A stretch of 50,609 nt of DNA from an uncultured Fibrobacterota bacterium (lineage in GTDB: Bacteria > Fibrobacterota > Chitinivibrionia > Chitinivibrionales > FEN-1185), in NCBI GenBank assembly GCA_963753345.1, contig CAVWBU010000020.1:1-50609 (forward strand), given 5' to 3'. Positions 39,686 through 50,609 of the stretch are shown here, piece after piece (positions within the stretch are counted from its first letter, which is position 1; each line of letters begins with the position of its first letter). Under the pieces are notes generated by a model. It did no database searches. It was given only the letters and a program-made list of their open reading frames with translations, and was not told the DNA's origin. The position numbers and the translations under genes were made by a program.

Positions 39686-40846
39686 ATGAATATTCTCATC
39701 ACCGGCGCAACAGGATTTCTGGGCGGGGAGATCCTCGTCTATTGTGCAAAACGGCCGGAAGTTGACAAAATTTACTGCCTGGTAAGGGCCAAAACCGGCG
39801 ATGACGCCGACAAACGCATCCGCAAGGTCTTCGCGCTCCACAACGACGCGTTCGATCCGGACAAGATCGTTGCCGTGCGGGGCGACCTTGTGGATCCGCA
39901 TCTCGCCGAGGTCCTGAAACAGCACCCGGGCCTCTCCACGGTCAACGTCATCATCCACGCGGCGGCAAACACGTCGTTCAGCAGGATCTACGACCTGCTT
40001 GTCGAGGAGATCAACATTAAGGGGCTCAAGAAAGTCCTTGCCTGGGCGCAGACGCTTCCCCACCTGCAGCTGTTTGAATACATCGGGACCGCGACCATCT
40101 GCGGGACCGACATCGCAAACCGGTTGATTCACGAATCGGAATCGCCGAATCTCGCGACAAAGCACCTGGTCAAATACACCAAGACCAAACTCATGGGAGA
40201 ACTTGCTTTATCGGAATACCTGCCGCCCGAAAAGATCCTTGTTGCGCGGCCGTCAATCGTGATGGGCGACAGCAGGGATGTCGTTGCGCGTTCGAGCGTC
40301 ATTCTCTGGGCCCTGGCGGTTTCCAACCTGGTCCGCCTGGTCCCGACATATCCCGACGTGTCCCTGGACATCATTCCGGTCGACTATGCGGCAAAGGCGA
40401 TTTCCGATCTCATTTTTGTCAAGCGCAACCACCGCGTGTATCATGTTTCCACCGGGACCGTTTCCATGACAACGCCCCGGCAACTGGGGAGCGCCATTAC
40501 ACCCTATTTTCCCGACAAACCGGACCTTACCTTTGTCGATCCCGCAATGATTTCCCAGATGAAGTTCTGGTCGAAAGGCGTGCTGTCGGACGACAGCGGG
40601 CTCCATAAGTACAAAGATCATCTTGCGTACTGGAAAAGTTCGTTCGGCAACCCTCTCGCCTTGCGGGTCCTTTTTGCGGGGTGGGAGCCGTACCTCCATT
40701 TCATGAATCTCGGTCACCTGTTTGACAACACGAGACTGTTACAGGATCTTCCGATCGGGCCGCCGCCGCCCGCGCATTGCTACGTCAAGAAGTGCGTTCC
40801 CTTCCTTCGCACCATCGATGTGTTTGAAGGCGCGTTGGACCCCTGA
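39686..40846 (+). CDS. Extended SDR, fatty acyl-CoA/thioester reductase-like (NAD_binding_4)
   Basis: ITGATGFLG, YCLVRA, VRGDL, IIHAAA, YTKTK (YxxxK), ARPSIVMG, DIIPVDY. Confidence 0.85.
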   Translation: MNILITGATGFLGGEILVYCAKRPEVDKIYCLVRAKTGDDADKRIRKVFALHNDAFDPDKIVAVRGDLVDPHLAEVLKQHPGLSTVNVIIHAAANTSFSRIYDLLVEEINIKGLKKVLAWAQTLPHLQLFEYIGTATICGTDIANRLIHESESPNLATKHLVKYTKTKLMGELALSEYLPPEKILVARPSIVMGDSRDVVARSSVILWALAVSNLVRLVPTYPDVSLDIIPVDYAAKAISDLIFVKRNHRVYHVSTGTVSMTTPRQLGSAITPYFPDKPDLTFVDPAMISQMKFWSKGVLSDDSGLHKYKDHLAYWKSSFGNPLALRVLFAGWEPYLHFMNLGHLFDNTRLLQDLPIGPPPPAHCYVKKCVPFLRTIDVFEGALDP

Positions 40847-40879
40847 GCCATACGGGAAACCGCGACAAGGATGTGACGC

Positions 40880-41224
40880 ATGGACGTTGCCTCACGAAAA
40901 CAGGACCTGAAATTTCTGTTCGGTCCCATTGTTGACGCTCTCGGGTACAAGTTCAGCCCGGACGAGGAGCTTGTCGATTTCTGTCTCGAGCAGGAAGTCA
41001 ACCTCGAGGAAAAACACGGGGTCCCGTTCTGCCCCTGCCAGGCGCTCACCAAAGACAGGGCGCGCAACATGAAAATCGTGTGCCCCTGCATCCCGTTCCA
41101 CCGGAAACATTACGACGCTATGAAGCGGTGCTGGTGCGGCCTGTACGTGCACAAGGACGTGACCGACCCGGATAAGCTAAAGCAGATTCCGGCGTCGGCG
41201 GTGAAAGAAAAAGTCGAAAGTTGA
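40880..41224 (+). CDS. Ferredoxin-thioredoxin reductase catalytic-subunit-like protein
   Basis: GVPFCPC, VCPC and RCWCGLYV triple Cys-pair signature. Confidence 0.88.
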   Translation: MDVASRKQDLKFLFGPIVDALGYKFSPDEELVDFCLEQEVNLEEKHGVPFCPCQALTKDRARNMKIVCPCIPFHRKHYDAMKRCWCGLYVHKDVTDPDKLKQIPASAVKEKVES

Positions 41225-41240
41225 AAGTTGGAAGTTGGAA
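41213..41240 (+). repeat. Short tandem heptamer repeat (GTTGAAA-like, x4)
   Basis: gtcgaaa gttgaaa gttggaa gttggaa spanning the FTR stop codon. Confidence 0.6.
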
Positions 41241-41314
41241 GCCAAAACAGTCTTCAATTTTACCAATCTGGAATTTGCAATCTGGAATTGATCAATCAGC
41301 AGAGGATATTCTGT

Positions 41315-41698
41315 ATGATTAGAAAAATCGCATCAATCTCCGACATTGCCGTCGGCGGCATCAAGGCGTTTGAAGTTGACGGGAAAGAAATTCTGGTCGG
41401 CAATGTGGACGGAACATTTTACGCCGTGGAGCGACGCTGCGGCCACATGAACGCGCCATGCGAGATGGGCACCCTGCGCGGCCACATCCTCACCTGCCCC
41501 ATGCACTACGCGCAGTTCGACATGCGCACGGGGAAAACGCTCAAGAAACCGTTTATCAAGTCCGAGCCAGAGGGGCTGCCGGACAAATTCAGGAACTTCT
41601 TTGAGCACAAGGAAGAAATGATGGAGAAGATCAGTACGTATGATTTGAAGACATTCAAGGTGATCGTTGAGGGCGGGGATATTTTCCTGAAGCCGTGA
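41315..41698 (+). CDS. Rieske [2Fe-2S] ferredoxin
   Basis: FYAVERRCGHMNA...LTCPMHYAQFDMRTG; RBS gagga. Confidence 0.88.
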   Translation: MIRKIASISDIAVGGIKAFEVDGKEILVGNVDGTFYAVERRCGHMNAPCEMGTLRGHILTCPMHYAQFDMRTGKTLKKPFIKSEPEGLPDKFRNFFEHKEEMMEKISTYDLKTFKVIVEGGDIFLKP

Positions 41699-41752
41699 CC
41701 ACAAGTTCACCTTTTGGCATTGCAGAGAAAAACCTAAATTGACGGACGGCAA

Positions 41753-42163
41753 TTACCCTCCGCTTAATACAGAAATAACGGAATCAATTCTCACCGTATC
41801 TTGTATAGTAAAATATGCGGTTGAATCGCCGGGTTTTGAAAGAAATATCCGCATTATGATATTTCCGCCGATCATTCTACAGGTATCGCAATCCGAATGG
41901 TAATTGAATTCTCCTTTTGAATTTGTCATTATCCTGCTTGAATCAACAATCGTGTTGGACGAACAAATAAAATCAACTTCGGAATTGGCGTAAATGCCCG
42001 AATCAATTGGCGTTCTCAATCTCCCCACAACTCCGCCATAAGCCGTCTCATATTTAATGAAGTACAACTTACCATCGATATTTATTTTTGGCTTCGTTTC
42101 ATTTTGCAATCCATTTTGACACGCAATAAAACAGAGCATAAATATTGCTAATACCATTCTCAT
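41753..42163 (-). CDS. Low-GC hypothetical lipoprotein
   Basis: MRMVLAIFMLCFIAC lipobox-like signal; RBS aaggag; AT-rich. Confidence 0.65.
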   Translation of the reverse strand: MRMVLAIFMLCFIACQNGLQNETKPKINIDGKLYFIKYETAYGGVVGRLRTPIDSGIYANSEVDFICSSNTIVDSSRIMTNSKGEFNYHSDCDTCRMIGGNIIMRIFLSKPGDSTAYFTIQDTVRIDSVISVLSGG

Positions 42164-42276
42164 AGTTAGCTCCTTTTCTTGGTTAACTTCAACGGAACAT
42201 TACTTTGCCATGATAGTCACAGAAAACCCTTTGACCGATGAACCGCCATTTCAAATTCGCCTAGTTTACAAGCGAT

Positions 42277-42797
42277 CTACCTGCTTACAATGCTGAAATT
42301 TCCCACGCAATTGTACGTCGGAAAGTAAAAACAATAGCAATATTCCGTAATATTTGCAACGAATTTGTAGTTTCCGGCCGTTAGCGAATTGGCAAAATGA
42401 ATCGTTGCGTTAAGCGAATATTTGCGTACCTGGGGCAGAATCCCGATGGCGTCGCTTACGTCCCAGTTGTAATCTCCAATGATAACAGTTGTATCTCCCT
42501 TGCTCAATGCGTGCATGCGGACAATGTTGAATGACTGGTAATTCTCATCATCCTCAAAAGACATAAAGGAGAGTCTGACTCGTTGAGTCGCGCATTTATC
42601 AACAGCGCGGTTGAATCACCAGTGTAATCGGTATCGCTTGATGTATCGTAGGTGAAAGCAATGGACGGATACGCAGTATCTGAGAACAGCCCGTCCGATT
42701 TCACGAGTTGTACTCTGGACGGACCAACAAGATGACTGGTTGTTGTCGGATTAGCACAGCACAGCATGAGAGCGAGAAGAAACACCATTTTCCTCAT
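42277..42797 (-). CDS. Low-GC hypothetical lipoprotein; apparent frameshift near 42570-42590
   Basis: RBS aggagga, MRKMVFLLALMLCC signal; overlapping ORFs 42504..42830 and 42277..42564 appear to be one gene. Confidence 0.5.
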
Positions 42798-43016
42798 TGT
42801 TATCCTCCTGCACGTTTTCCAATCGTGCAAACTGCAATCACATTCTCATCGGCGCTTTTCACACTCATTTTTGAACTTGGAAAATCTTGGCGACGATTCT
42901 GTACATCAGTACCATTATGTAAATACCCACCCGCAGCAATGTGCCGGCTCTGTCATAACAGTCGCTGAAATCGCCTGCAGGGTACAAACGGTGAGATTAC
43001 AAACAACAAAGACCGG

Positions 43017-43772
43017 CTAGAAATTGTCTTTTCTCTGCCGCAGCTCGGCGAACACCGCGATCCCGTTCGCGTCTTCCATGCCGAGCCTCTTCCTGATGGC
43101 GGGACTGCCGGTGCGGAGGAACGGGTTGGTGGCCCGCTCCACGAGGATGGTCGACGGAACCGTGGGCATGTTGCGGGCCTGGAGGTACTTTACATCCGCA
43201 AGTCGCTGCCAGAGGTCCTTGTTTTCGGTCTCCACGGTCGTGGCGAACAGAAGATTTTCCTCGGTGTATTCGTGGCCGCAGTACACCGACGTGATGTCCT
43301 CGACGCCGGTGCACTTGATGAGCGACCGGAGCATGTCTGCCGGCGTGCCCTCAATGACGCTTCCGCACCCGCCGCCGAACAGCGTGTCGCCCGTGAACAG
43401 CGCACGCAGGGCCGGAAAATGATACACCACGTGCGTCATGGTGTGGCCCGGCGTGTGGATCACCTCCACACTTTCATCGAGGACCGAATGCACTCCCTCG
43501 TCCCGCGCTATATCATCCACAAACGGCAGGCCCATGTCGCCGGGCCCGATGATCCTGCACCCGTGCGCACGCTTGAGTTCAACCGCGCCCGCGCAATGAT
43601 CGGCGTGGTGGTGCGTGATGAGAATGTGCGTCAGCTTCAGCTTGTAGCGGCCCAGGAACCGCTGGACAACCTGGGAGTCCCCCGGATCGACGGCCGCGGC
43701 TTCTGCGCCGTTATGCAGCACCCACGCGTAGTTGTCGGCCATCATGGGGAGTATGGCAATGGTAATTTCCGT
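43017..43772 (-). CDS. gloB: Hydroxyacylglutathione hydrolase (glyoxalase II)
   Basis: DNYAW, VDPG, THHHADH, HTPGHT, LFTGDTLF, CGHEYT, ERATNPFLR, LRQRKDNF; start placed at an ACG 7 nt after aaggagg. Confidence 0.92.
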   Translation of the reverse strand, partial: TEITIAILPMMADNYAWVLHNGAEAAAVDPGDSQVVQRFLGRYKLKLTHILITHHHADHCAGAVELKRAHGCRIIGPGDMGLPFVDDIARDEGVHSVLDESVEVIHTPGHTMTHVVYHFPALRALFTGDTLFGGGCGSVIEGTPADMLRSLIKCTGVEDITSVYCGHEYTEENLLFATTVETENKDLWQRLADVKYLQARNMPTVPSTILVERATNPFLRTGSPAIRKRLGMEDANGIAVFAELRQRKDNF

Positions 43773-43892
43773 ACGAACGCCTCCTTGGAACCGCTGTCCA
43801 GAAAAATAGGGCTTTTGATGCAGGAAAAGCAACCGGTAGATTATTTTCTTTCTCCGTACGGGCGACTGTTTACAAATCACACCGTTGCACCC

Positions 43893-45074
43893 ATGCATTA
43901 TTCCGGCATCGATATCTTTTGCCATGTCGTCGACAATTTCGGCGACGCAGGCGTGGCCTACCGCTTCGCGCGTGAGCTCTGTCTCGCCCGCCCGTTGTGC
44001 AGGACGCGGCTGTTCTGCGACGACCTCGCGCCGCTTTCGGCCATGTGGCCCGGGCTTGATCCGCGCGCCGCTCTCCAGGAATGCAACGGCATTGTCGTCG
44101 TCGACGCAACGAAGCTCGACGGTTCTCTCATAAATCAACTTGGCCCCGCCGAGCTTGTCGTGGAGGCGTTCGGCTGCGACATTCCCGCGCCGTATGCGGC
44201 CGCATTGCTGCCGGCGGCCTCGGCGTGGATCAACCTCGAACATCTGTCGGCCGAACCGTGGGTCGGCGGATACCACCGACGGCAGTCGATGCTGGGAACG
44301 GGCGGGCCCGCAAAATATTTCTTTATGCCCGGATTTACAGAAGACACCGGGGGCGTGATCGTTGACACGCGTGTTGAAAAAGTCAAGCAAACGCTGCCGG
44401 TGCGGCGCATGGAACTTCTTTACGGATTTCTGTCGCCGTTCGGAATTTCCGCGCCCTCCGCCGAAGGCGCGCTGTTCGGCGTCGTCTTCACCTATCTGCG
44501 GGGGTTCGACTCCCTGCTCCGCGATCTTCAACAGTCGTGCGACAAGACCTATTTGTTCGTATGCGGAGACAAGAGCACAACCGGAATGATTGCAACCGCA
44601 CAAAGAACGGGCGGCAAAACCCTCGGCGCATCCCGTCTCCGCGTCGGCACCGTCGACATCCTCCTGATGCCCTTTTTGCCGCAGCACCGTTTCGACACGC
44701 TTTTGTGCCTCGCGGATTTCAACCTCGTGCGCGGCGAGGACTCGCTGGTGCGCGCCATATTCGCGGAAAAGCCGTTTGTCTGGAATGCCTATATTCAGAA
44801 AGAAAAACACCACCTTGTCAAGGTGCGCGCCTTCTGCGACAATTTTGCCGGGTACTTTGACGACAAGGCAGCGCTTGCGCGATACCGGGAGCTGTCGGCG
44901 GCCTTCAACGATTCCGGGAAAGAAACAGCCGGACCTGCCGCATCGGAACGTTTCGACGGATTCTTCGGCGACCTTAAAAAAATCGAGCATTCGACAAGGA
45001 GGATGAGTTATTTTATGGCGCACAAATGCAGCCTGATTGACAAGTTCATTGGTTTTCTCGAAAGCATTCCATAG
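43893..45074 (+). CDS. earP: EF-P arginine rhamnosyltransferase EarP (alternative start at 43818)
   Basis: DIFCHVVDNFGDAGV, EAFGC, WINLEHLSAE, KYFFMPGF...GG, DFNLVRGEDSLVRA, PFVWNAYIQ; directly upstream of efp. Confidence 0.93.
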   Translation: MHYSGIDIFCHVVDNFGDAGVAYRFARELCLARPLCRTRLFCDDLAPLSAMWPGLDPRAALQECNGIVVVDATKLDGSLINQLGPAELVVEAFGCDIPAPYAAALLPAASAWINLEHLSAEPWVGGYHRRQSMLGTGGPAKYFFMPGFTEDTGGVIVDTRVEKVKQTLPVRRMELLYGFLSPFGISAPSAEGALFGVVFTYLRGFDSLLRDLQQSCDKTYLFVCGDKSTTGMIATAQRTGGKTLGASRLRVGTVDILLMPFLPQHRFDTLLCLADFNLVRGEDSLVRAIFAEKPFVWNAYIQKEKHHLVKVRAFCDNFAGYFDDKAALARYRELSAAFNDSGKETAGPAASERFDGFFGDLKKIEHSTRRMSYFMAHKCSLIDKFIGFLESIP

Positions 45075-45096
45075 TACACGAGCGGAGGATGTCCAA

Positions 45097-45657
45097 GTGA
45101 GAGAAGCACAAGACCTTAGGGCGGGCAACACCGTCAAGATCGGAAACGACCTTTTTCTGGTCACCAAGTTTACCTACAACAAGGGCGCGCGCAATGCTTC
45201 GATGGTGAAAATGAAGCTCAAGAACCTTTCCACCGGGAACATTGCCGAGTCGGTGTGCAAGGCTGCCGACAAGTTCGAGGACGTGGTCCTCGAACGCCGC
45301 ACCATGCAGTTTCTCTACGCGTCCGGTGATTTTTACACGTTTATGGACCAGGAAAATTTCGAACAGATGGACTTGACAAAAGAAGACCTCGGCGACGCTC
45401 TCAATTATCTCAAGGAACAGATGTCCATCGACGTGGTGCTCTACGGTGCGCGTGCCGTGGGCGTTGAAATGCCCATCAATGTCGAACTGAAGGTGACCTA
45501 CTCGGAGCCGGCGACTCGGGGCGACACCTCGGGCGGCAAGGTGCTCAAGGCGGCGAAGACGGAGACCGGCTACGAGCTTCAGGTGCCGCTGTACGTCAAC
45601 GTGGGCGACCTTATCCGCATCGACACCCGCAACGGAGAATTCGTCGCGCGAGCTTGA
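45097..45657 (+). CDS. efp: Elongation factor P (Arg32 type)
   Basis: GTG start with RBS ggagga; NKGARNAS loop, KLKNL, EPATRGDTS, VPLYV..GD.IRIDTR.GEF. Confidence 0.95.
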   Translation: MREAQDLRAGNTVKIGNDLFLVTKFTYNKGARNASMVKMKLKNLSTGNIAESVCKAADKFEDVVLERRTMQFLYASGDFYTFMDQENFEQMDLTKEDLGDALNYLKEQMSIDVVLYGARAVGVEMPINVELKVTYSEPATRGDTSGGKVLKAAKTETGYELQVPLYVNVGDLIRIDTRNGEFVARA

Positions 45658-45979
45658 ACCTATTGCATCACGCAACATCGTATAATTCAATTGAAAATCT
45701 GGGCGCCTTTTTCCGTTTACTCCAACCATAGTAATTCGGCTGTCTGATCATTCTTGACAGTAATCATGCCAGTCTATTTGGAGATGCGGGAAACGGAGGC
45801 GTACTCATCAATAGTGATCAGTACGTTTTTCAACGACTCACCAACCCTCGTACGCAAAAGCCTTGCCGCACCACCATTAGAATCAGTAGCTTGACAATGA
45901 GGATTGTCACCATACGGAAATCGAGAAGAACCGGTTTGCCACTTTCGTATTGCCTGTGGATGTAAAAAGGCAGTTTCTT

Positions 45980-46112
45980 GCGCCAGGGGCGACTGGAGGC
46001 CGCGCTGGAGCGCGGTGCCGCCCGGACCCGGCCCTGTGGGCCATAGGGCCGAGGCGGCCCGAGGCCGAAGGCCGAGACCGGAAGGAGAACCGGTGCCAAC
46101 TGGCAGGCGCCC
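45980..46112 (-). repeat. GC-rich structured repeat, copy 1
   Basis: Minus strand gggcg...ggttctccttccggtctcggccttcggcctcg...ccctatggcc...cgggtccgggcggca...cctccagtc...cgc aligns by eye with 47884-48021. Confidence 0.6.
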
Positions 46113-46226
46113 AGATTCCATTGAATAATGAGACACTGCACTGTTTTTTCCTTCCTTGAATATTTGACAAATAATGTGCGCTGGAATGTAGTTTATTTAT
46201 AACCTTCACTCAGCGGGGCACATTTC

Positions 46227-47843
46227 ATGGCACTCTTCAAGAAAAAAGACACGCTTGACGCGATGAAAAACCTGGACCGCACGGGCCAGCTCCTCTCCGA
46301 CTACAAGCGCATAACCGTGGTTTTCAAGTCCCACCCCCACATTTCCATCAAGGAAATCGTCGGCGCTCCGCCGGAGAAATATCAACTGTTGTACAAGATC
46401 GAGGGGCTGGAAAAAAACAAGAATGCGATCGAGGTGAAAGACGAGCACGTGGTGGAAATAAGCCTTCCGCCCAAATACCCGGTAGAGCCGCCCGTTTGCA
46501 AACGGGTGACGGCGTTGTTTCACCCGAACATTTCCGACGACGGCATCGACATCAAGCAGTACTGGAAGCCCGACATGCCGCTCGCCGATCTTATCGTTAC
46601 CATCGGCGAGATGATCGCTTTTCAGAAATACAGCACCACAAACCCGCTGAGCTACGAGGCGGCGAAATGGGCCGACCGGAACAGATCGATGCTTCCGCTG
46701 TCAACGGCCAACCTGAAATACCGGGAACCCCAGCCCACGCAGGACAACGCGCCGGCGACCGAAGTCATGGTGCGCGAGCATGAATCCGGCGGTTCACCTC
46801 CTCCTGATGACGGCCGCAAGACCGAAGGAATCCTGATCGACTCAGGCACCGACCGGATCGACATTGAGACGGAACCAGCCGAGGTGACGCCTTCTCTGAG
46901 TGCGGAACTACGAAAGACCGCCATGTTGCAGGAAGACAAGGCAGATACCACCATCATTTCGCCGGCCTTTTTGGAAGAGCTGCCGGCAAAGCCGCAGCAG
47001 CCGCAACCGTCGAAAAAGGTCAAACCCGCGCCCAAGCCCGAGCCGGCAAAGGTCGCGCCCAAGGCCGAACCGACCAGGGCCTCGCCCGCTCCCGCGGCAC
47101 CCGCGCCCCAGCCGCGCGCTATGCCGCCGGTGAAGGAAAAGGAAACGGAAATGTCCGTGCCCGTGGTTACCAGGGAAAACACCGGGACACGCCCCCAGGC
47201 GGATGCAGGGCCGGTTTCCCCGAGCGAAGGGATGATATGCCCCAAGTGCGGAAGCAGGAACCCCGGCACCTCCAACTTCTGCACAAATTGCGGAACAAGA
47301 ATCCGCCGTGATTTCCATCCCGGATGTCCGATAACCAAGGTTCTCCTGCTCTCCTTTCTTATATCCCTGCCCGTGGCGGTCATTGCCGTGGGCATGACGC
47401 TCATCATCACAAGCCACAGCCGGTCGGCCGCGGTGATTGTGCAGCCCGTACCGGCCGCGCCCACGCCAGCGCCTGCCGCCCAGGTCGCCGCGCCCGTGCA
47501 GGCCGCGCAGGTCGCAGCACCTGCCCCCGCTCCTGCTCCGGCGCCGGCAAAGACTGCGGCGGCCGCGACCGCAGATTCTTCTGCTGTCAAGGCCGCTCCC
47601 GCGGCGTCCGCTGTCCCCAAACCCCCGCGGTCCGCGGGTATGTCGGCCGAAAAGAAAAAGTCGGCCATCGACGACGCGCTCAAGACCGCCCAGATCTATC
47701 TGAACATTGGGTCCTTCGACGAAGCGCTGAACAAGTACATGTACGTACTCAAACTCGATCCCCAGAACGACGATGCGCTCGACGGGCTCAGGATGATCCG
47801 GGATGCGAAGGATAAGGCTGCGGCGGATTCGGCGAAGAAATAG
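46227..47843 (+). CDS. Ubiquitin-conjugating enzyme (E2/UBC)-fold protein lacking the catalytic Cys, with zinc ribbon, single TM helix and C-terminal TPR
   Basis: ISLPPKYPVEPP...TALFHPNI-SDDGIDI...WKP..PLADLIVTIGEMI...NPLSYEAA; Pro/Ala/Lys linker; CPKC-x10-CTNC; hydrophobic VLLLSFLISLPVAVIAVGMTLII; TPR AQIYLNIGSFDEALNKYMYVLKLDPQNDDA. Confidence 0.8.
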   Translation: MALFKKKDTLDAMKNLDRTGQLLSDYKRITVVFKSHPHISIKEIVGAPPEKYQLLYKIEGLEKNKNAIEVKDEHVVEISLPPKYPVEPPVCKRVTALFHPNISDDGIDIKQYWKPDMPLADLIVTIGEMIAFQKYSTTNPLSYEAAKWADRNRSMLPLSTANLKYREPQPTQDNAPATEVMVREHESGGSPPPDDGRKTEGILIDSGTDRIDIETEPAEVTPSLSAELRKTAMLQEDKADTTIISPAFLEELPAKPQQPQPSKKVKPAPKPEPAKVAPKAEPTRASPAPAAPAPQPRAMPPVKEKETEMSVPVVTRENTGTRPQADAGPVSPSEGMICPKCGSRNPGTSNFCTNCGTRIRRDFHPGCPITKVLLLSFLISLPVAVIAVGMTLIITSHSRSAAVIVQPVPAAPTPAPAAQVAAPVQAAQVAAPAPAPAPAPAKTAAAATADSSAVKAAPAASAVPKPPRSAGMSAEKKKSAIDDALKTAQIYLNIGSFDEALNKYMYVLKLDPQNDDALDGLRMIRDAKDKAAADSAKK

Positions 47844-47883
47844 CTACCATTTTATGTTTGTTTGCAGGTAGTAAGCAAGATAT

Positions 47884-48021
47884 GGGCGTTCCCCTCGCTG
47901 CGCTCGGGTCGGTCTCCCTCCGGGCTCGGCTTCTCGCCTCGTTGCCGGACCGCCCCGATGGCCTCCGGCCGGGGTCGGCCGGCAATTCGCTATGGCTCAC
48001 CCTCCGGTCCACCTAACGCGC
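47884..48021 (+). repeat. GC-rich structured repeat, copy 2
   Basis: gggcgttcccctcgctgcgctcgggtcggtctccctccgggctcggcttctcgcctcg...cccgatggcc...ggggtcggccggca...cctccggtc...aacgcgc; REP-like palindromic content. Confidence 0.65.
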
Positions 48022-48222
48022 GGCAACGGACTTCTATTCAGTCAATTACTTCTTTTCGCGCCAATTGGCATCCGCTTGATATCTACTATCAACCGTCAAC
48101 TTGTTCTCGTCTTTTCTTCTCAACTCCTCAACTTCTCAACCTTTCATTTTTTTTCCAGGGCCGAAGCGAGGGCGAGCCTTCCCCCCATAGATTATTGTTC
48201 TATTTTGTCCACAGTTACTGCT

Positions 48223-50401
48223 TTACCTCTCGGCCTTTTTCTCCACCACTTCCAAATCCCTCTTCGCCGCCTTATTCCCCGGCTCAGCCTTCAGCACCGC
48301 GCTGAACTGCTGCTCCGCCTCCCCTATCCTGCCTATTGATGCCAGCAGCGCCCCGTAATTAAGCCTCGCCTCGACGTTGACGGAATCGAGCCCGATCGCG
48401 GTTTCGTAGCACGCAATCGCCGCGCCGGTGTCTCCCAGCGCGGCAAGCGCGCGGCCGAGGTCCGATTGCGCCTCGGCGTTTTTCGGATTGATGCGCACCG
48501 CTTCCCTGAAATGACCGGCCGCCTCTTTCATGGCGCCCTTCATTGCCAGCGCCACGCCAAGATTTACATGAGCGACTCCGAGGTCGGGCCGCAGCCGCAG
48601 GGCTTTTGAAAACCACGCGATTGCTTCGTCGAGGCTGCCGGCGTCGGCCAGAAGCCTGCCCAGACCGCACATCGCGAGGGCGGCATCGGGTCTGATGCGC
48701 AGCGCGGATTTGTATTCGTCAATTGCCTCGGACGCTTTCCCGCTTCGCGCCAGCAGGTCAGCGAGCCTGCTGTGCGCGTCGAAATCGTTTGGGCTGCGGC
48801 GCAGCCCCTGCCGAAAGCTTTCCAGCGGCCTCCGGCAGCTTTCCCCTGTCCGCGAGCACGGCCGCAAGATTGAAGTGCGCCTCGGCCAGTTCCGGCGCCG
48901 TGGCCAGGGCCTTCCTGTAGCATTCGAGTGCATCGCCCATTTTGCCCTGGCGGGAAAGCGCTATGCCGATGTTGTTGTAGACATCGTAGGCAACGCCCGG
49001 GTCGCCGGGCTTTGCCGCGAGCGCGCGGTGAAAGCTTGCTATTGCGGAATCGGTCTTCCCCAGCGACGACAGCGCGACGCCGAGGTTGAGATAGGCGACG
49101 TCGTTGTTTTTGGTGACCCTTGCCGCGTGCTCGAACAGCGACACACTGTTGTTCCAGTATGCGGCCTCTGTGTGCGTTATTAATATGAGAACAGCAAGCA
49201 CAGCCACGGCGCACGCAAACAGAACGGGCCGCAAAAAACGCCAACGCGCAAGCGCGGCGGGAATCCCCCACGCGATCATGATGAATGTCCCAATATACGG
49301 AACATAGGTGTACCGGTCGGCCATGGACTGCACACCAACCTGCACGAGACCGATCACCGGCACGAGCGTGCCAACGTACCACAGCCATCCTGCGAGCAGA
49401 TACGGCATTGTGCGCCTTGCTTTTAGGCAGAAGACCGAGATTGCGACAAGCACGCACAGCGACACAACAATGGATGCCGTCGGAAGCCGCGGCGGGAAAG
49501 GATAGAAACACGCAAGATTGACAGGCGCGACCATTTTCCATAGATACGCGCCGTACGAATTGATTGCGTTCGCAACGCGCTCCAAAAGTGAAAGACTCGA
49601 AACCGCCACAACGGCGTTCTTGTTGCTCTGCGCAATGACGGCAACGATACATGAAACAGCGGATACAGCAAAAAAGGGTATCTTCTCGATGATTAACGGT
49701 CGATAATCTCTCCAGCCAGGCTTCCTATTGGAATTCAGCTTTTTTTCTTTTTGATTTGTCTTTTGCATACCGAGACGGTCCAGCGGCCACACATCCAGCA
49801 GGAGCAGGGTAAAGGGCAGGGTCACCAGCATGGGTTTTGCCATGAGGCCGAGGGCGAAGCATGCAAGCGCCGCAGCATACCATGTCTTTCCCCTCGCGGG
49901 AACCTTTACATATCGGATATAGCACAGCGTGGCAAGCAGCCAGAACATGGCGCTCAACACGTCCTTGCGTTCCGCGACCCACGCCACCGACTCCACGTGC
50001 ATCGGGTGCAGCGCGAACAGGGCCGCGACAAACGCGCTTTTCCAACCAGCGCCCGTTGCCAGCCACAGCAAATAAAAAAGCAGGACCACGTTCAGAACGT
50101 GCAGGGCAAGGTTGACGCAATGGTGCGCCCGCGGCCGCACACCGAACAAACGGCAGTCAAGCATGTGCGAAACCCAGGTGAGCGGGTGCCAGTTGCCGGT
50201 GTCGAACGTGGAAAATGCCCAGGCGAGATTTGCGGGCGTCGGCCCGGAAACCACGTGAGGGTTGCGGGTGACATAGAGCTCGTCGTCGTAGCTAACGAGA
50301 AAAGACGCGCCGGAAACCGGCCAATACGCAACAACGGCAACGGCGCATACAAGCGCGCATACTGCCGCAAACCGGAAACGGTCTGCCGATGCCCTCATCA
50401 T
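48223..50401 (-). CDS. TMTC-like multi-pass membrane GT-C (O-mannosyltransferase-like) protein with TPR repeats; apparent frameshift at ~48826
   Basis: YDDELYV, NWHPLTWVSH, LFALHPMHVESVAWVAERKD, LMAKPM, MADRYTY; TPRs continue LESFRQGLRRSPND in the adjacent frame. Confidence 0.85.
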
Positions 50402-50572
50402 GCATTTCCTGTCTTGTGTTCGTGAAACCGTCCGGCCGTCCACAAAATATACCGCACCCGCGCGCGCGTGTCAAACCGCTTTGGAAGCATGCGGTGCAGG
50501 CCTTTGACGAAAGCGGGACCAGGATGCAAGAGCATGAGTACTCGGCAAGAAGAATGTATATTTTCATCTTTC

Positions 50573-50609
50573 GCGCCCTTAGCTCAACTGGATAGAGCAT
50601 CTGGCTTCG
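50573..50609 (+). tRNA. tRNA-Arg(TCG), truncated by the window edge
   Basis: GCGCCCT-TA-GCTC-AACTGGATA-GAGC-A-TCTGG-CT-TCG; typical Arg D loop with A20. Confidence 0.8.

Follow-up and report, generated by a model that had tools for sequence, protein, structure and literature searches.

What does a bacterium do with a ubiquitin-conjugating (E2) fold that lacks its catalytic Cys, has no pathway partner found in the genome and is joined to a membrane helix? The question is raised by a gene on contig CAVWBU010000020.1 of assembly GCA_963753345.1, from an uncultured Fibrobacterota bacterium. Positions 1 to 50,609 of its forward strand were analysed as one stretch, here called the window. The gene encodes a protein (P0001) built, from N- to C-terminus, of a pseudo-E2 domain, a Pro-rich linker, a zinc ribbon, a transmembrane (TM) helix, an Ala/Pro-rich spacer and an end resembling tetratricopeptide repeats (TPR). 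An earlier note, made from the letters of the DNA, had read it as an orphan receptor of the ubiquitin E2 variant (UEV) kind. We consider it reasonably probable that the protein is a non-catalytic, UEV-like putative binding module of E2 fold carried on a transmembrane scaffold, where ‘UEV-like’ refers to its probable mode of action and not to descent from eukaryotic UEVs.

The N-terminal domain and its catalytic position

In its predicted structure, the N-terminal domain is a genuine ubiquitin-conjugating (UBC) fold. The E2 signature pointed out earlier is legible in the translation (LPPKYPVEPP at residues 80–89, TALFHPNI at 95–102 and W113-K-P), and Pfam UQ_con (PF00179) matches residues 75–154 with 40.1 bits against a cut-off of 27; a profile search of the whole genome gave the same gene 42.8 bits. 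No Prok-E2 Pfam family was found among the protein’s 16 Pfam matches at E ≤1. An AlphaFold2 (AF2) model of residues 1–175, built from 101 aligned sequences, has a predicted local distance difference test score (pLDDT) of 91.4 and a predicted template-modelling score (pTM) of 0.85. Foldseek returned 396 matches to this model in the PDB at E ≤0.001; among the matches listed, the top rows are E2 entries, the best being 8grq_N (E 1.3e-7, prob 1.0). VIA-align placed model residues 14–157 on UBE2S (7ahf_A) with a Z of 13.8 and a root-mean-square deviation of 2.8 Å over 129 residues.

The residue at the catalytic position of this fold is Asp108. Its codon is two changes away from any Cys codon, and the contigs of four other public runs, from two studies, show no variant there. 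A word-indexed search with residues 1–175 found 22 proteins among 271 candidates of 295–942 residues. In their alignment (A1), the orthologues of 500–670 residues read FHPNIS-x3-I-D-I, and the relatives of 295–302 residues (P0019–22) read FHPNIAPHA-I-C-I in columns that match the I-D-I of the long proteins, so that Asp is common to the former and Cys is found in the latter. Searched exhaustively, a set of 1.84 billion representatives yielded 1118 matches at E ≤0.001 and 576 at E ≤1e-10, the best 150 of which were used. The column of D108 in the set of 164 proteins holds 121 Cys, 33 Asp, 3 Arg, 2 Ser and one each of Phe, Gly, His, Tyr and Thr; the set consists of best-scoring matches, and these shares are not representative of the whole family. 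In a profile built from 101 members of the family, the family Cys falls on the catalytic Cys of Ubc13 (PDB 2r0j). Aligned as a single sequence to E2s of the PDB, the protein opens a gap at the Cys because the bacterial family has shorter loops around it than canonical E2s, by one residue ahead of the Cys and by three behind it. The earlier reading of GIDI in place of GxIC was right in substance.

The catalytic Cys after HPN that marks an active E2 is hence missing from this protein, and with Asp in its place the canonical site cannot hold a thioester-linked modifier. We infer that the pseudo-E2 domain has lost catalysis. The HPN motif is itself retained, in all 35 Asp- or Ser-type proteins and in 33 of 33 rows of the Asp-clade alignment (A3). 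The family also has a second conserved Cys, Cys91, which is present in 116 of the 121 Cys-type proteins and in 28 of the 35 Asp/Ser-type ones, and which is neither specific to the Asp clade nor invariant inside it. Cys91 was considered as a substitute nucleophile and rejected, being conserved alike in the Cys-type proteins.

Descent of the Asp clade and the search for partners

A tree of 164 E2 domains (147 columns, the trait column masked; IQ-TREE quick search under LG+G4) places the query inside a set of 34 rows, 32 with Asp and 2 with Ser, at a Shimodaira–Hasegawa-like approximate likelihood ratio (SH-aLRT) of 99. One more Asp row, P0118, lies outside this set on a long branch elsewhere. 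The tree was built without UEV sequences; in it the nearest relatives of the clade are bacterial Cys-type E2s, and the listed PDB rows are active E2s. Judged from these sequences, the Asp clade descends, as a derived branch, from the E2s of bacterial operons that encode a ubiquitin-like protein (Ubl), E1, JAB, FHA, RING and E2, rather than a stray eukaryote-like gene, and its origin appears independent of the eukaryotic UEVs.

Departure from the Cys-type proteins extends well beyond position 108. R21 in helix 1 is found in 99% of Cys-type proteins, and the commonest residue there in the Asp clade is Q (41%); D111, three residues after the Cys, is found in 98%, and the commonest residue in the Asp clade is E (47%). 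E117 (85%), N136 (96%) and S139 (96%) are all lost in the clade. Newly fixed in it are F4, K7, E43, E69, E73, L158 and S159, of which E43, E69 and E73 fall on or beside sheet strands of the AF2 model and may form a putative new binding surface. TM segments were predicted for 31 of the 33 Asp rows, for both Ser rows and for 17 of the 121 Cys rows. The clade also has its own N-terminal extension, modelled at low pLDDT, since Cys-type relatives align from about residue 18 onward; F4 and K7 are each conserved in at least 90% of the 33 rows of A3. Full-length orthologues share the opening M-A-L-F-K-K-K, so the start codon is sound.

Across residues 1–175, identity to the query runs from 83% to 46% over 17 relatives of full architecture and is 40–41% for four short Cys-type proteins. 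The nearest named records are metagenome-assembled genomes (MAGs) labelled Chitinivibrionales, at 81%, and MAGs labelled Fibrobacteres or Fibrobacterota stand at 55–58%; the other 77 relative loci carry mostly Planctomycetota labels, with some Verrucomicrobia, Kiritimatiellae, Myxococcales, Aminicenantes and others. Within Fibrobacterota, 9 of 296 genomes have a match, the window’s own included. All 7 other genomes of the family have the gene, and so does 1 of 46 in a neighbouring family, there as the Cys type; none of the remaining 19 families of the phylum gave a match among these genomes. All copies lying whole within a contig are intact open reading frames (ORFs), and the copy in G067 runs off a contig end. 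The Asp-type gene is conserved intact across the family and its wider metagenomic relatives, down to about 45% identity in the domain.

Two observations bear on the spread of the Cys-less forms. In G064:C52, from a genome of the window’s genus, two Asp-type paralogues (L097, L098) lie ~58 kb apart, one with the full architecture in a 650-residue open frame and one in a frame of 402 residues that comprises Asp, E2-like domain, zinc ribbon and TM helix without the TPR-like end. In addition, P0105, P0137, P0143 and P0157 form a second Cys-less set, proteins of 588–819 residues whose active site shows FHPD...I-R-I or I-Y-T and which carry long fused TPR arrays. Loss of the catalytic Cys thus seems to have happened on more than one occasion among these bacterial E2s.

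The parent operon was read from ORFs clustered around Cys-type relatives in 77 loci (L007–L083), several of them cut by contig ends. A ThiF cluster is present in 33 of the 77 and a JAB/FHA cluster in 49, as recurrent same-strand neighbours. In L027 (771–8765 of a Planctomycetaceae-labelled MAG), a YukD-like beta-grasp protein, ThiF (E1), JAB, FHA, a zinc-ribbon protein, Prok-RING_1 and a fusion of Prok-RING_1, DUF4190 and Trypsin_2 precede the E2 (UQ_con plus Zn_ribbon_4); L044 (3675–8474 of a Verrucomicrobia-labelled MAG) has ThiF, JAB, FHA and E2. In G032, a genome that belongs to the window’s own order, the genes E1-JAB-FHA-RING immediately precede a Cys-type E2 (L102, G032:C237). The pseudo-E2 and the L027 E2 stand in one tree and share 39.7% identity over 146 residues (E 1e-34). 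The Ubl of L027 ends in EITAG followed by 11 further residues, a tail that would fit processing by the JAB peptidase, and two proteins of the operon, with DUF4190, look membrane-associated. In a scan of 55 proteins, other members of the family have the E2 domain fused to FHA, Pkinase, DUF4190, Trypsin_2, zinc ribbons or TPRs. We take this operon to be the bacterial eukaryote-like ubiquitin operon of Burroughs, Iyer & Aravind; bacterial Ubl-E1-JAB-FHA-RING-E2 operons were reportedly described by these authors in 2011, in Mol Biosyst 7:2261. A literature search turned up no experimental study of such operons. A passage of PMC8382908 cites Arcas, Cases & Rojas 2013 (Antonie van Leeuwenhoek 104:509) for Planctomycetes E2 enzymes.

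The operon E2s of Planctomycetota, Verrucomicrobia and others resemble the pseudo-E2 in their short-loop signature, FHPNI-x4-I-[CD]-I-x3-W, in the PPxC Cys and, often, in having a zinc ribbon behind a Pro-rich linker. The pseudo-E2 differs from them in having Asp for Cys, in the loss of R21, D111, E117, N136 and S139, in the added TM helix and TPR-like end, and in standing without Ubl, E1, JAB or RING genes, neither as neighbours nor elsewhere in the genome as far as found. That genome is 94.26% complete in 55 contigs and contains one UQ_con match. Profiles of ubiquitin, JAB and YukD have no match in it, and the matches of Prok-JAB (14.8 bits) and Prok-RING_1 (15.4 bits) stay below cut-off. 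Two ThiF genes lie on other contigs, one of MoeB/ThiF type and one of TcdA type. The MoeB-type E1, on contig C47, scores 304.7 bits to the archaeal SAMP-activating UbaA, below the cut-off of 450, and scores best against MoeB/ThiF-type models; a ThiS-family beta-grasp gene is on a third contig, C27. When 14 operon proteins were used as tblastn queries, the matches were the pseudo-E2 gene, trypsin domains, one FHA stretch and a ThiF stretch of 27% identity, and no operon Ubl or E1 homologue appeared in the genome beyond that stretch. The flanks of 10 Asp-type loci contain none of the operon proteins, and the sister genomes gave no match to JAB (0/5) or Prok-RING_1 (0/4), with the control, G032, matched at its operon. 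PADLOC reported zero families at E ≤0.01. That the pseudo-E2 is an orphan, with no cognate Ubl, E1, JAB or RING found in a 94%-complete genome, is supported by these searches; the lack of E1, JAB or Ubl genes remarked on earlier for the vicinity extends genome-wide, by profile and by tblastn.

The proposed membrane scaffold and what it may carry

A full-length AF2 model, built on 33 aligned members of the Asp clade, alternates ordered and disordered parts (Table 1). The E2-like domain, about residues 20–170, is modelled at pLDDT >90, the zinc ribbon (331–360) at 77–90, a single long helix (369–397) at 84–89 and three C-terminal helices, spread over 474–537, at 91–97. The linker, at 173–330, and the spacer, disordered in the model, are mostly below 50 (in the linker 173–190, 195–203, 205–259, 266–268, 271–286, 291–299 and 306–330; in the spacer 400–410, 417–419, 424–435 and 439–464). 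Within the linker lies one conserved motif, whose T199 is nearly invariant and which is retained down to ~35% overall identity. Its sequence R-K-T-E-G and the basic N-terminal F-x-x-K are candidates for intra- or intermolecular contacts; a complex prediction of the E2-like domain (1–172) with linker residues 183–226 gave a score of 0.00 and a mark of 0.32, which speaks neither for nor against docking, and in the full-length model most of the motif region is at pLDDT <50. The ribbon matches Zn_Ribbon_1 at residues 338–358 with 29.7 bits (cut-off 25), and all four Cys of C338-x2-C341-x10-C352-x2-C355 are nearly invariant in A3.

The membrane helix is the sole hydrophobic segment of the protein, with its best 19-residue window at 372–390 (mean Kyte–Doolittle hydropathy 2.6). 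The net charge is +3 in the 15 residues before it and +1 in the 15 after, so that the positive-inside rule would place the E2-like domain and ribbon in the cytoplasm and the spacer and TPR-like end outside, in the periplasm. The three TPR-like helices (474–494, 497–510 and 515–537) carry the conserved motif GSYDDAI..Y..VLKLDP.N, and Pfam TPR models match residues 488–518 below cut-off (TPR_11, 17.8 against 26.8 bits; TPR_2, 16.5 against 27). Most of what the earlier note had said of these parts was borne out, namely the Pro-rich linker, the CxxC-x10-CxxC ribbon, the single membrane helix, whose N-terminal side is predicted to be cytoplasmic, and the Ala/Pro stalk; its TPR stands as three helices of that type, amounting to only ~1.5 repeats. 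No NCBIfam model matched the protein near its cut-off, and the scores of Amuc_1098 (23.6 bits), SgmX (17.5) and GltJ (10.1) were ascribed to TPR similarity or low-complexity sequence. The best ESM Atlas scores, 0.79–0.81, fall in generic TPR and zinc-ribbon clusters and serve as leads only.

Table 1. Position of the pseudo-E2 gene and its parts in the window
Feature	Residues	Position	Strand	Basis
Whole gene (P0001)	538 aa	46227..47843	+	ORF list and translation; ATG start
N-terminal extension, conserved F4 and K7	1–17	46227..46277	+	Asp clade only
UBC/E2-fold domain	~18–165	46278..46721	+	Pfam UQ_con, AF2, VIA-align
Cys91 (PPxC), second conserved Cys of family	91	46497..46499	+	family alignment
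HPN motif, retained	H99-P100-N101	46521..46529	+	translation and DNA
Asp108 (GAC), catalytic-Cys position	108	46548..46550	+	alignments and DNA
Disordered Pro-rich linker, 27 Pro in 158	173–330	46743..47216	+	AF2 and composition
Conserved linker motif D-D-G-R-K-T-E-G-I-x-I	194–204	46806..46838	+	clade alignment A3
Zinc ribbon CxxC-x10-CxxC	336–358	47232..47300	+	Pfam, conservation, AF2
Single TM helix	~372–395	47340..47411	+	hydropathy; AF2 helix 369–397
Ala/Pro-rich spacer, predicted periplasmic	400–470	47424..47636	+	composition (45/71 Ala or Pro); AF2
C-terminal three-helix TPR-like domain	474–537	47646..47837	+	AF2

On the reading we favour, the product would be a bitopic inner-membrane protein whose cytoplasmic UBC domain, with D108, would be unable to carry a thioester-linked modifier. 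Its branch split from the Cys-bearing operon E2s, lost R21, D111, E117, N136 and S139 and in nearly every member gained a membrane anchor; in the genomes that have it, as far as searched, the other components of the pathway are missing. The E2-like domain would have become a non-catalytic module that binds protein in the manner of a UEV. The disordered linker and the zinc ribbon would tether it at the cytoplasmic face of the membrane, the TM helix and the spacer would couple it to the small periplasmic TPR-like domain, and the whole would act as a transmembrane scaffold or signalling adaptor. The orphan UEV-like receptor proposed earlier is in this respect retained for its Cys-less E2 fold, its membrane anchor and its want of partners, with a reduced TPR.

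Several points weigh against this reading. The HPN motif is invariant in the Asp/Ser-type proteins and has been lost from classical eukaryotic UEVs; the active-site region is therefore still constrained, which would allow some chemistry, or a ligand bound in the former active-site cleft. Cys91 is mostly kept. The MoeB-type E1 and the ThiS-family gene may leave a ligand of the sulfur-carrier Ubl type possible. The predicted topology has the positive-inside rule as its single basis, and at 94% completeness absences from the genome are not proof. It is conceivable, if unlikely, that Asp108 or Ser together with the invariant HPN forms a working site in the old cleft, with a new chemistry or ligand; a substrate other than ubiquitin, for instance a sulfur-carrier beta-grasp protein or a peptide tail, might then be bound or processed there at the membrane, and an E2 scaffold would serve as transmembrane sensor or enzyme in a bacterium without a Ubl conjugation pathway. 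A related proposal is that the domain is still an enzyme, in which HPN works with Cys91 or with Asp108/Ser108 as nucleophile and a modifier is carried or passed on, perhaps a ThiS/MoaD-type beta-grasp protein that the MoeB-like E1 would activate. The constancy of HPN, the retention of Cys91, the Ser found in two clade members and the presence of both genes speak for it. Cys91, however, is a family feature, as well kept in Cys-type proteins, and is missing from 7 of the 35; D111, N136, S139 and R21, near-invariant in the Cys type, are gone; and the E1 and ThiS genes sit on separate contigs, the E1 scoring best as MoeB/ThiF type. We know of no precedent for an acyl-aspartate carrier of a Ubl, and continued catalysis appears improbable to us.

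Dead enzymes are often inhibitors, and descent from an operon E2, with the fold and many surface positions of the Cys type retained, would suit a decoy or regulator that binds E1, RING or Ubl without turnover and is directed against a Ubl conjugation system provided in trans, whether by phage, plasmid or a neighbouring cell. Yet helix 1 of canonical E2s is the surface that contacts E1 and E3, and its R21 is lost here; moreover, no PADLOC defence model matches, the neighbours are housekeeping genes (GloB-type, EarP, EF-P) in mostly kept synteny with no mobile or defence-island context, and the gene is present throughout the family, so that we hold a decoy to be quite unlikely. Proteins that combine a zinc ribbon with TPRs but have no E2 domain are common, and the Atlas neighbours are of this sort (as leads only), which raises the question of whether the E2-like domain is a decaying relic beside a working module of zinc ribbon, TM helix and TPR-like end. 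Conservation argues the opposite: the E2-like domain is the best-conserved part over the 17 relatives, with several invariant positions and the clade-specific E43, E69, E73, F4 and K7, and the short paralogue of G064 has kept domain, ribbon and TM helix and dispensed with the TPR-like end. A relic is thus very improbable, and a non-catalytic binding module on a membrane scaffold remains the reading that we prefer.

UEVs are eukaryotic and Asgard inventions that read rather than write ubiquitin signals. The eukaryotic ones (Mms2/Uev1 and the UEV domain of Tsg101/Vps23) share with the pseudo-E2 a UBC fold without a catalytic Cys, so a non-catalytic binding role would be expected of the latter; they differ from it in that the pseudo-E2 has retained HPN, is membrane-anchored and comes from a genome with no ubiquitin match. 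Membrane anchoring recalls Ubc6 and UBE2J1/J2, tail-anchored active Cys E2s of the eukaryotic endoplasmic reticulum, which likewise combine a UBC domain (predicted cytoplasmic in the pseudo-E2) with a single TM helix on its C-terminal side; the pseudo-E2 has Asp for Cys and, beyond the helix, a long predicted extracytoplasmic spacer and the TPR-like domain. The bacterial Prok-E2, BilB and CBASS Cap2 E2s belong to the same fold superfamily, but the pseudo-E2 matches the classical UQ_con with HPN and has no Prok-E2 Pfam or PADLOC match. Asgard archaeal UEV-Vps23 proteins, according to a preprint (bioRxiv 10.1101/2023.07.25.550441), act with co-encoded ubiquitin and ESCRT. They and the pseudo-E2 are both prokaryotic E2-variant domains with a non-conjugating role, one that is predicted for the pseudo-E2; the latter differs in that no Ubl system was found with it and its partners are a zinc ribbon, a TM helix and a TPR-like end.

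Already known, then, are the parent E2 family with its operon and the Cys-less E2 variants of eukaryotes and Asgard archaea. A literature search returned no paper on a bacterial clade of Asp-type, membrane-anchored, orphan E2s, and Burroughs 2011 or Arcas 2013 may mention Cys-less forms. What the clade would add is a bacterial lineage that independently retained the E2 fold without its nucleophile, apparently shed the entire pathway, and joined the domain to a membrane-spanning scaffold. A ligand, if found, would show use of the E2 fold outside conjugation and would offer a handle on the parent Ubl-E1-JAB-FHA-RING-E2 operons.

Neighbouring genes

Upstream of the pseudo-E2 gene lie, in the order of the window, a GloB-type hydrolase on the minus strand, EarP and EF-P; downstream is a convergent gene for a membrane protein with TPRs. 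This order is kept in the genus loci L004, L095 and L096, partly in L097 and L100, and not in L099, which is outside the genus. With spacers of 570 bases before the gene (45658–46226) and 380 after it, the pseudo-E2 gene looks monocistronic and no neighbour is credible as a partner. EF-P was considered as a functional partner and set aside, its adjacency being limited to L004, L095, L096 and L100, and absent from L097 and L099, and the two genes being 570 bases apart. Rfam has no match in 40000–50609. A promoter scan of 45500–48400 gave one site (46100–46129), to which no weight is given, 0.7 being expected by chance. Among the sequencing runs listed as containing the sequence, none is an RNA run.

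One extra base near 48823, missing from L004 and L095, breaks the convergent downstream gene, for a multi-pass membrane protein with TPRs at its C-terminus, into two overlapping minus-strand frames (48758–50443 and 48223–48933); in L004 the gene is a single ORF of 807 residues. The break reflects either a genuine frameshift or a mistake in the assembly. On the plus strand, at 43899–45657, EarP (302 bits to its Pfam model) stands head to tail with EF-P. The EarP stop, at 45074, falls inside the longest EF-P ORF, which opens with TTG at 45037; relatives align to EF-P from residue 15–17, so the true start probably lies downstream of that TTG. At 40880–41698 on the plus strand a FeThRed_B-like gene (83 bits), resembling that for the ferredoxin-thioredoxin reductase catalytic subunit, immediately precedes a Rieske [2Fe-2S] gene, and the two are also adjacent in L096 and L097.

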